Numbered from the stretch's first letter, positions 1 through 2,745 are shown. The stretch: DNA of 64,000 bases from Chitinivibrionales bacterium (GCA_038247415.1 JBBRUX010000008.1:1-64000); one strand, 5' to 3'. The notes: a model not told the origin generated them from the sequence alone. Translations and numbers: made by a program.

Positions 1-2745
1 AGTCCTGCTGCGACGGGCACCATCAATGAGGCCGCAAAGACCGTTGCGGTGACCGTGCCGTTCGGGACTGTGGTGACAGCACTTGCCGCAACATTCACTT
101 CGACAGGCGCATCGGTCAATGTCGGAACGGCGGCACAAACAAGCGGAGCCACTGCCAATAATTTCACGAGCCCGGTCACTTACACGGTCACCGCAACCAA
201 TGGGAACAAACAAGATTATGTGGTGACAGTTTCTGTTGTCAAAGATCAGGCCCCAAAATTCGTGCATGATCATATTGCTGTTTCCGTTCTCGAAAACGCA
301 ACGGTATCTCTTCCTTTGCGCGACTCCTGCATGGATCCCGATCGCGACTCTGTGAGCTTCGCCATTCTCGGTTCGCAAACCAAAGGCAGCATTATCAATA
401 AGATCTGGAGCTATTCTCCAACGTATAACGATTCAGGTTTGCACACAGTTTTTATCGAAGCAAGTGATGGTACGCTCACTGATACCGTCACGCTTGATGT
501 GCGCGTCGTTAATGTTAACCGTGCTCCGGTTTTTACCAATGGCTCTCCACAATCAACGTATCTGATCCCGGAACAACAGCAATTATCGATACCAGTTGTT
601 GCAACAGATCCGGATGGTGATGCAGTGACAATCCGGATAAAGAGCCAGAATCTCCCTCGCAGCGCAACACTCAGCGGCGGCACAATCACTTTTGCGTCGC
701 AACTGGGTGATGGCGGGTCTTACCAGATTATGCTACAGGCAAAGGATGCGAAAGATACGACTGATTTTTCTATTTCTGTGTCTATTGGCAATTTCCCCGT
801 GCGACCACAAATTGCACTTGCTGGGTATAGCAAGGGCGCCACTATTTCCATCAAGGAAGGGGCGCCATGTGGTCTGACATTTACGAAGAGTGATCTCAAT
901 CCAGGGCAATCGGTTGTTTTTTCGCAAATCCTAAATAAACCAACGTGGGCTAATTTTGATCTTGCTACAGGGGTGCTTTCTGGCACGCCGGATTATGCCG
1001 TGACAACGATGGCTGCTGGTTCGCTTAAATTTGCGAATGTGAGCATCCTTGCCCATGATGATGCAACACCTGCGCTGTATGATACTTTTTATGTTGACAT
1101 AACTGTGCAAGACTCAAATCGAGCGCCGAACAAGCCTTCGAGTCCGAGCCCTGCTGCGGGCGCTATTGCGGTGCCAATCAATTCCCAGATTTCGTGGATA
1201 GGCGGAGATCTCGATGGAACAGCAGGATTGACGTATGATGTTTACTTTGGGGCAGTAGCTCCTTTAACACGCGTGTCAACAGCTCAGAGCGGGACTTCCT
1301 ATTCGTCCACCCTCGCCACGGGGACAAACTATCGATGGGTTATTGTGGCAAATGATGGGAGGGCAACAACCGCGAGTGATACTTTTTCGTTCAGGACTAC
1401 CAATCAATTCTCTTTTGTAACGAGCATTGCGGCTGACACCGGAACTGTTACAGGAAACACAATTAGTCAAGATCGGTCTGGCAACGTGTTTGACAGCTCT
1501 ATGATAGTGACACTCACCGCAGCGACAACGGGGGATGTGCGGTATACGTGGGCTGGGTGGAGAGTTAATGGAGGAACCATAGTTATCACAAATCCGTTGC
1601 CAATAACGGTGGATGGTGTTAAAAATATAACTGCCAATTTTACGATGAAAAGGTTTTCTGTTGCTTTTAATTCGCAAGGTGGGAGCGCCGTTGATTCTCA
1701 AAGGATTGGGTATGGCGGATTGGCTACCGCGCCAAGTCCAGCGCCAACGTTTTCGGGTTATGCCTTTGGCGGTTGGCATAAGGAATCTGGTTGTACAAAT
1801 GTTTGGACTTTTGGGACTGATATTGTTACAGCAAATACGACACTCTATGCGAAGTGGACGGTTAATCAATACACAATTTTCTACAATAGCAATGGGGGTG
1901 GGGGTAACACAGCTCCAACCTCGATCACTCAGAATTATGGGACTTCATTTACTGTTGCAAATCAAGGATCAATGTCAAAAACCGAGTGGCAATTTGCGGG
2001 GTGGAATACCGAGCCAAATGGAAGCGGAACAAGCTATGCAGCAGGAACCGGAGTCTATACAATTGGCAGTGCGAATGACACGCTCTATGCAAAGTGGGCA
2101 TCGCTACGGGATGTGGATAACAATTTATACACCACTGTTACCATAGGAACCCAGGTTTGGATGGTGGAGAACCTGAAGACTACGAGGTATAATGATGGAA
2201 CGACAATACCTCTTGTCACTGACATTGCAGCATGGGTGAACCTTACATCGCATGGATATTGTTGGGATAACAATGATTCCTCCACAAATAAGAATACATA
2301 TGGAGCTTTGTACAATTGGTATACCGTAAACACCGGCAAACTGGCACCCGCGGGTTGGCATGTTCCAACCGATGCGGAGTGGACGACGCTGGAAAATTAT
2401 CTTATTGCTAACGGATACAACTGGGACAGCACAACCACAGTAAACAAGATCGCCAAATCCATGGCAGCGAAGACGGACTGGACTATATCCGGCACTACCG
2501 GAACTGTCGGTAATGACATTGTAAGCAATAATCGTAGCGGTTTTTCGGCCCTTGGGGGCGGTTGTCGTAACGACTATGGATATTTCTACGCCATTGGCTA
2601 CTACGGTCACTGGTGGAGTGCTACGGCCTACGCTGCGTCGAACGCGAACGCATACCACCGTACCCTCTACTACGACGACGGCTACCTTGCCAGGTACAGC
2701 AGCTACAAGAGTTGCGGTTACTCGGTGAGGTTGGTTAGGGATTAG
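1..2745 (+). CDS. Large multidomain surface/secreted protein, 5'-truncated by the window edge: DUF5018-like Ig domain, cadherin/Ig-like repeats, InlB B-repeat (Listeria-Bacteroides) domains and a C-terminal FISUMP domain; probable DGR target
   Basis: Frame is open from base 1 (SPAATGTINEAAKTVAVTVP...). Motifs: NRAPVF/DPDGD (cadherin-like); FNSQGGS..GYAFGGW..TLYAKW (InlB B-repeat); YTTVTIGTQVWMVENLKTTRY..YGALYNWY..GWHVPTDAEW..GYSVRLVRD (FISUMP). Confidence 0.85.
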   Translation, partial: SPAATGTINEAAKTVAVTVPFGTVVTALAATFTSTGASVNVGTAAQTSGATANNFTSPVTYTVTATNGNKQDYVVTVSVVKDQAPKFVHDHIAVSVLENATVSLPLRDSCMDPDRDSVSFAILGSQTKGSIINKIWSYSPTYNDSGLHTVFIEASDGTLTDTVTLDVRVVNVNRAPVFTNGSPQSTYLIPEQQQLSIPVVATDPDGDAVTIRIKSQNLPRSATLSGGTITFASQLGDGGSYQIMLQAKDAKDTTDFSISVSIGNFPVRPQIALAGYSKGATISIKEGAPCGLTFTKSDLNPGQSVVFSQILNKPTWANFDLATGVLSGTPDYAVTTMAAGSLKFANVSILAHDDATPALYDTFYVDITVQDSNRAPNKPSSPSPAAGAIAVPINSQISWIGGDLDGTAGLTYDVYFGAVAPLTRVSTAQSGTSYSSTLATGTNYRWVIVANDGRATTASDTFSFRTTNQFSFVTSIAADTGTVTGNTISQDRSGNVFDSSMIVTLTAATTGDVRYTWAGWRVNGGTIVITNPLPITVDGVKNITANFTMKRFSVAFNSQGGSAVDSQRIGYGGLATAPSPAPTFSGYAFGGWHKESGCTNVWTFGTDIVTANTTLYAKWTVNQYTIFYNSNGGGGNTAPTSITQNYGTSFTVANQGSMSKTEWQFAGWNTEPNGSGTSYAAGTGVYTIGSANDTLYAKWASLRDVDNNLYTTVTIGTQVWMVENLKTTRYNDGTTIPLVTDIAAWVNLTSHGYCWDNNDSSTNKNTYGALYNWYTVNTGKLAPAGWHVPTDAEWTTLENYLIANGYNWDSTTTVNKIAKSMAAKTDWTISGTTGTVGNDIVSNNRSGFSALGGGCRNDYGYFYAIGYYGHWWSATAYAASNANAYHRTLYYDDGYLARYSSYKSCGYSVRLVRD
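2545..2745 (+). other. Putative DGR variable region (VR) with IMH-like 3' end
   Basis: By hand count, 30 of 51 codons in 2569-2721 end in C (11 TAC, plus GAC, AAC, CAC, AGC, GCC), interspersed with fixed scaffold codons. This is the pattern expected from A-to-N mutagenesis of AAC codons. It lies at the C-terminus of a CLec-fold FISUMP domain. Confidence 0.75.

Follow-up and report, generated by a model that had tools for sequence, protein, structure and literature searches.

A hypervariable FISUMP head in a Chitinivibrionales surface protein, probably a DGR variable repeat beside a decayed cassette

Introduction

Is the C-terminal tip of a large surface protein from a Chitinivibrionales genome a variable repeat (VR) written by a DGR, and is it still being rewritten? 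The question is raised by the beginning of a 64,000-nucleotide stretch of DNA (the window), which is the start of contig C8 in a 3.84-Mb assembly (G000; 99 contigs, 96% complete). A first-pass annotation, made from the sequence alone, had described the end of the first gene as a DGR-type hypervariable region, placed it on a FISUMP head of C-type-lectin (CLec) fold at the tip of a long Ig-like stalk and suggested a probable Fibrobacterota organism as host. The assignment to this phylum was correct, and we infer Chitinivibrionales as the host order.

The mechanism, FISUMP targets and remote targets are already known. Passages in PMC5758913 place Fib_succ_major/DUF1566 targets such as Legionella LdtA in ‘category d’ of Wu et al., describe remote targets as well as indels beside AAC, and give GC-rich inverted repeats downstream in 34% of DGRs. 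Further passages list nine Fib_succ_major target proteins (PMC4159848) and 43 Fib_succ_major targets in Bacteroidota, mostly from freshwater and wastewater MAGs (PMC11661182), and a passage in PMC8144416 states that RT-anchored mining misses remote targets. Our literature search yielded no paper on a DGR in Chitinivibrionales, and a search on orphan VRs found no paper either. Fibrobacterota DGRs may nonetheless appear in tables of PMC8144416, PMC11661182 and PMC5758913.

Results

The gene at the start of the window is incomplete at its 5′ end (Table 1). Pfam searches with the 914-aa ORF returned two Big_9 and two Flg_new domains and Fib_succ_major at aa 713-913, together with weak Cadherin_4 and DUF5018 matches. 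The missing 5′ part is probably located on contig C67 (1139->3, minus strand), and the join of both contigs is proposed because the end of C67 and the start of the window share an 80-nt identical overlap within tandem DUF5018-like repeats. This putative 5′ part opens with a basic-hydrophobic leader ending in Cys, the lipobox being non-canonical and judged by eye. Together the two parts would encode a lipoprotein of ~1,300 aa, and this large protein is likely surface-anchored. Upstream of the putative 5′ part and on the same strand, C67 carries a type VI secretion cluster (ImpA/VasJ, VipA, VipB, Hcp; C67:1-8119, minus), with two uncharacterised secreted-looking genes in between.

The head was modelled with AlphaFold2 from a 101-sequence alignment, which included 100 of the 120 matches listed, and the model reached a mean pLDDT of 96. 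Its best structural match in 48,161 chains is TvpA (2y3c; Z 9.2, rmsd 3.7, 156 aligned), and further matches are TaqVP (Z 7.4) and Mtd (Z 6.5). Foldseek gave no match at E<=0.001, and a PDB sequence search gave none. The Fib_succ_major match and a predicted fold closest to TvpA bear out a FISUMP/CLec-fold head on a long Ig-like stalk.

Table 1. Features at the start of the window
Feature	Position	Strand	Basis or remark
Target gene, 3′ part, 914 aa, 5′ end open at contig start	1..2745	+	Pfam
Domain order of the target gene: DUF5018-like repeat, 2 Big_9/cadherin-like Ig domains, further beta-rich domains, 2 Flg_new (InlB-B-type) repeats, C-terminal FISUMP	1..2745	+	
FISUMP domain (Fib_succ_major, PF09603), predicted CLec-type fold	2137..2739	+	Pfam E 1e-37, AlphaFold2
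DGR variable repeat (VR), probable	2539..2745	+	comparison of alleles
Invariant VR 3′ end, putatively IMH-like by position	2706..2745	+	1 difference/37 nt vs C38; alleles rejoin at 2705-2706
GC-rich perfect 6-bp inverted repeat, 3-nt loop, candidate DGR targeting hairpin	2779..2793	+	34 nt past stop codon
avd stub: first 13 codons, then stop	2819..2860	+	tblastn with intact Avd of G001
BrnT/BrnA type II toxin-antitoxin pair, at place expected for rest of cassette	2907..3435	-	Pfam
5′-truncated gene fragment, Por_Secre_tail-like end, cut at duplicated VR end	3542..4018	-	Pfam
131-bp direct repeat (98%) of 2726-2856: VR last 20 nt, hairpin, avd start	4019..4149	+	
Second avd relic, in frame over 29 codons, followed by frameshift and truncation	4112..4230	+	

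The tip of the head is marked by codons ending in C. The NNC bias had been described exactly: of the 51 codons in 2569-2721, 30 have C as their last letter, and TAC is used for 11 of 13 Tyr residues, compared to 182 of 856 (21%) and 8 of 32 in the upstream codons 1-856 of the same ORF (binomial p 6e-9). The VR is also A-poor, with 19% A vs 32% upstream. Genome-wide, the tail of the target gene tops the C-ending counts of 1,756 stop-to-stop frames of at least 300 aa (29/51 in the equivalent window), followed by three other frames with 26-28, and 30/51 is reached by 65 of 818,102 overlapping sliding windows. The third FISUMP gene of G000 on contig C2 lacks the bias (10/51 C-ending, 0/4 Tyr as TAC). 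G000 also has ten FGE-sulfatase genes, and none of the intact frames of at least 300 aa among these stood out in the tail scan. An enrichment of C-ending codons (p<0.001) was present in ~24 of 44 distinct FISUMP tails, a sample biased by being picked for likeness to the VR, and several of them stem from genomes in which no DGR RT was detected. Because of these tails, the NNC bias alone is no proof of DGR activity. Three verified VRs score only 19-22/51.

Intact systems provide a standard for comparison. Five genomes contain an exact copy of the template motif predicted in the first-pass annotation, and in the three that we compared in full it belongs to the TR of a target-avd-TR-RT cassette. 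These three loci (L049, L050 and L051) come from Bacteroidota MAGs; they are complete FISUMP cassettes with VRs homologous to the one in the window. Mismatches between TR and VR are found at TR adenines in 34/42, 31/41 and 36/41 cases, respectively, and the remaining ones of L049 and L051 are mostly located at the alignment ends.

Contig C38 carries a paralogue with 64% identity to the C8 gene upstream and near-identity at the fixed VR positions. In the scaffold 156 of 429 positions differ, 87 of them at codon position 3, and in the flanks of the VR 0/25 and 1/37 positions differ; within the VR there are 35 differences in 136 positions, only four of which affect codon position 3 (Fisher p 1e-6). 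The near-identity begins at 2539, at most 3 nt from the start of the TR-like repeat of the same-family genome G001 (2542), and 28 of the 36 differences of C38 lie opposite an A of a homologous, non-cognate TR. This pattern points to one common template for both VRs and, as the avd stubs behind the two targets are only 75% alike, one template seems to have served loci with different local cassettes. Differences between VR alleles are confined to 2564-2705, plus 2720. At 2641-2652 the C8 VR contains a 6-nt duplication, in frame and next to an AAC codon, which is absent from C38 and from the X2 allele described below. The changes of the C8 VR at 2619 and 2720 are unexplained by A-to-N mutagenesis, and at 2441 and 2520 the C8 allele does not follow the commoner scaffold.

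Other versions of the tip are present in sediment metagenomes. Four metagenome runs, analysed as Logan contigs, contain the stretch. Three of them (X1-X3) belong to one study with shares of 0.65-0.83; the fourth (X4, share 0.31) mostly holds distant pieces and was left out of the allele comparison. A 1,242-nt piece identical to 2807-4048 is present in X1 and X2. A 199-nt contig of X2 spans 2539-2743 with the same flanks, 34 other letters and a 6-base gap. Using 32 listed positions (2600 was excluded, as it belongs to another contig), 30 differences are at codon positions 1-2; 31 could be aligned to the L051 TR, and 29 of these lie opposite an A, compared to 40 of 149 invariant positions (p 2e-12); the TRs of this test are non-cognate and only 62-64% identical to the VR, and their A positions also mark naturally tolerant loops. 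In low-depth contigs of X3, 17 of 19 differences face a TR A (2608 excluded). Rows of X1, where the loose ends of the contigs resemble Bacteroidota TRs, were excluded from the adenine test. Further contigs of X1 and X3 link 2568 to 2705/2706 across other letters. Overall, the alternative alleles differ almost only at adenines of a homologous, non-cognate TR. These alleles are unitigs, which could stem from paralogues or close strains and are not phased to the C8 locus. As they are nearly identical in the flanks and almost devoid of synonymous change, the diversification appears to be very recent.

Summed contig depth relative to the unique flank is 2.7-4.8x for the head scaffold and 5.7-7.4x for the VR end, a weak hint, since depth does not equal copy number, that the MAG lacks some paralogues or relatives. 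Over its 3′ half, the C8 allele has no cover in X1, and this half was not seen as such in X2 and X3, although the unique flanks are identical; the contigs are filtered and such holes prove nothing. On contig C65 (6105-6240, minus strand) we noted an isolated VR 3′ fragment without target ORF, and the same 30 letters occur in X2 and X3.

The DNA behind the VR resembles the remains of a cassette. The whole 91-nt fold around the candidate hairpin has a z of -1.7, which is modest by itself; the intact DGR L051 has a similar 6-bp hairpin at the same place and L049 a weak one. No intact avd was found in G000: tblastn returned five pieces spread over four places, each of them truncated or frameshifted. 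Contig C6 ends inside the avd-start repeat, and its end matches the region 4106-4380 at 98.5% identity. Dispersed palindromic repeats are present at 4220-4400 and 4453-4562 of the window; they are common to C6 and C38 and always located beside avd relics. A second decayed cassette lies on C6 (C6:122081-122729). It begins with the start of a frameshifted avd, followed by a palindromic repeat, a short segment which, judged by eye, reads like an FGE-type VR end, the avd 3′ half and an RT-7-like spacer RNA. This spacer RNA runs into unrelated DNA within the contig and no TR follows, which indicates that the cassette has really been deleted. The Rfam RT-7 RNA matches the avd-TR spacer of L049 and of the G001 locus (L024) below the gathering score, likewise the spacer of the C6 locus (L062), suggesting that the RT-7-like RNA is a DGR spacer. 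Of the RT RNA motifs covered in passages of PMC5737381, only RT-10 is named there as linked to DGRs.

Such remnants might also be left by an avd-TR-RT cassette that, in this Fibrobacterota family, settles behind successive FISUMP genes and is then deleted, leaving the VR end, the hairpin and an avd stub, so that one roaming cassette would rewrite ~3-6 heads on different stalks. We regard this scenario as unlikely. If it were true, one of these heads would belong to the ~1,300-aa lipoprotein, whose gene lies shortly downstream of the type VI secretion cluster, and the choice of cells to be contacted could depend on it.

In a same-family genome (G001) the order is target, intact avd, RT-7-like spacer RNA and TR-like repeat, without RT; the match of the Avd to NCBIfam DivGenRetAVD (E 5e-15) does not reach the curated cut-off. 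The G001 repeat was rejected as a clean TR: no RT stands behind it, and of the mismatches to its own VR, 11 of 19 in the 5′ part and 10 of 32 in the 3′ part are at A. It rather represents a TR/VR hybrid (G001:C188:1423-1813; L024:1320-1710) with an AAC-rich TR-like 5′ part and an already mutagenised 3′ part, which could be a deletion product of recombination between the TR and a downstream VR. Two other genomes contain similar pieces, namely a frameshifted avd and spacer without TR (G003:C22:1-510, L122) and a target with spacer and partial TR without RT (G048:C21, L055).

It could still be argued that no DGR was involved and that the tip is an ordinary variable binding loop on which diversifying selection acts, and which was either made uniform between paralogues through gene conversion or taken over from a genome with a different codon usage. 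The C-enriched FISUMP tails from genomes without detected DGR RT and the failure to find a cognate TR or an RT are in line with such an origin. However, it leaves unexplained the avd start directly behind two targets, the relic of the spacer RNA, the coincidence of the conversion boundary with the TR boundary and the near absence of changes at codon position 3. Hence, an origin without a DGR is very improbable and already largely refuted, and we have hardly any doubt that the tip is of DGR origin.

The first-pass annotation had also expected a TR-like copy of 2545-2745 elsewhere in the genome, and here the outcome was negative: no cognate TR was found in G000 using blastn, an A-tolerant 40-mer scan of both strands and an all-against-all repeat scan (3,865 pairs, four flagged, none AAC-rich or FISUMP-related). 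The RT domains of three DGR RTs had no tblastn match in G000. The sole RVT_1 match of the assembly, on contig C5 (46950-47773), was considered as DGR RT and rejected, being group II intron-type and truncated; a stop codon splits it from its downstream part. The absence of TR and RT concerns the assembly (96% complete, 99 contigs). Repeats common to TR and VR tend to break short-read assemblies, and the end of C6 shows that this assembly breaks in DGR repeats.

Wider searches gave a similar picture. A DNA search of 296 genomes of the phylum with the VR found no cognate TR, a pattern scan of the metagenomes for a TR returned nine loci, all of VR type, and viral contigs gave zero matches to the template motif and one distant FISUMP relative. 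The L049 RT was not found in G000 or in any of six same-family genomes (6/6), and it was found in 6 of 81 genomes of the order at E<=1e-20. G240 was tried as a full cassette and dismissed: its RT is 70% identical to that of L049, but the fragment carries no TR upstream of it. In the phylum as a whole, 39 of 296 Fibrobacterota genomes contain DGR-type RTs (E<=1e-40), 32 of them among the 151 genomes of one family, and several of these RT loci show FISUMP-like VR/TR pairs.

These results bear on the question whether the VR is still rewritten. It is possible, with a chance not far from even, that a DGR wrote the VRs recently and was then lost lineage-wide, so that the alleles of paralogues or strains are now fixed. 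This would fit the lack of RT and TR in the 96%-complete assembly and the fact that three of the seven genomes of the family (G000, G001 and G003) contain decayed cassettes lacking an RT. The X1 and X3 alleles are each present at about single-copy depth, as fixed paralogues would be, and the VR fragment of C65 shares its 30 letters with the assembly, X2 and X3. On the other hand, the alternative alleles with their nearly identical flanks and almost no synonymous change are difficult to reconcile with a loss of this kind, one X3 contig with divergent scaffold has a VR unlike the C38 allele, and a TR could be missing from G000 because of the assembly breaks mentioned above.

The gene may also be an active remote target, for which an intact avd-TR-RT cassette outside the MAG still diversifies it and several paralogues, and we consider this a serious possibility, albeit a tentative one. 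Several A-specific alleles across three samples, the intact hairpin and VR 3′ end, and the remote targets described in passages of PMC5758913 are consistent with ongoing activity, and the excess in depth suggests copies outside the MAG, although this is a weak argument. Against it, the TR-like ones among the loose ends listed match Bacteroidota-type TRs and none is cognate, and the RT is present in 0/6 same-family genomes. Whether a working RT and TR still exist in the cells on unassembled DNA we would put at about an even chance. The claim of a DGR-type hypervariable tip thus stands as far as a VR written by a DGR is concerned, on the basis of the codon signature, the paralogue and the A-specific alleles; ongoing diversification is only a possibility, with no TR or RT in the assembly and an avd reduced to a 13-codon stub.

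Discussion

Taken together, we assume that the tip is a VR written by an Avd-TR-RT DGR, which likely acted in trans on several FISUMP genes, and that the local cassette has decayed to an avd stub; this is the probable reading of the locus, and the action in trans on more than one target is in itself well favoured. In the proposed mechanism, the RT would have introduced A-to-N errors while copying an AAC-rich template RNA, and the 3′ ~165 nt of each target would have been replaced through mutagenic retrohoming, with the TR located elsewhere. About 23 residues would thereby be changed on the predicted CLec binding face, 12 of which are aromatic or His in the C8 allele. The head would be displayed on a ~1,300-aa, lipoprotein-anchored stalk and may serve adhesion to cells or particles, and the cassette that formerly lay behind the target gene would have decayed to the present avd stub. 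The system as such is well known, and the gene is likely one of its remote targets or one that it has abandoned.

The locus resembles category d targets in several respects: the VR is C-terminal and lies in a Fib_succ_major domain, the surface protein has multiple domains and is probably a lipoprotein, the changes are at codon positions 1-2, a GC-rich inverted repeat is present downstream, and there is an in-frame indel beside AAC. It differs from them in the lack of an adjacent TR or RT, in its host, a member of the Chitinivibrionales (Fibrobacterota), and in an unusually long stalk (DUF5018, Big_9, Flg_new). The Bacteroidota cassettes L049, L050 and L051, which have the avd-TR-RT core of architecture B as given in passages of PMC5758913, are similar in that homologous VR, Avd and RT-7-like spacer follow each other in the same way, and their TR adenines predict the variable positions of the C8 VR, although at 62-64% identity their TRs are non-cognate to it. 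In contrast to these intact systems, the C8 cassette is cut after 13 avd codons and followed by the toxin-antitoxin module and a gene fragment. The DGR of Treponema denticola with its target TvpA provides the best fold match and a precedent for one template that serves several dispersed surface-protein genes, which is our working model for G000; its RT and TR are known, whereas both are missing from G000. Furthermore, the C8 head is of FISUMP type, unlike TvpA, which we take to belong to the FGE-type class.

With this finding, a sediment lineage of Chitinivibrionales joins the hosts in which surface proteins are diversified by DGRs. The locus also indicates that DGR targets are recognisable without an RT, via the homogenisation of paralogues, avd stubs and A-specific alleles, and that RT-anchored surveys miss such orphan targets. 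If the family is still rewritten in trans, it would represent a natural multi-locus library of binding heads.
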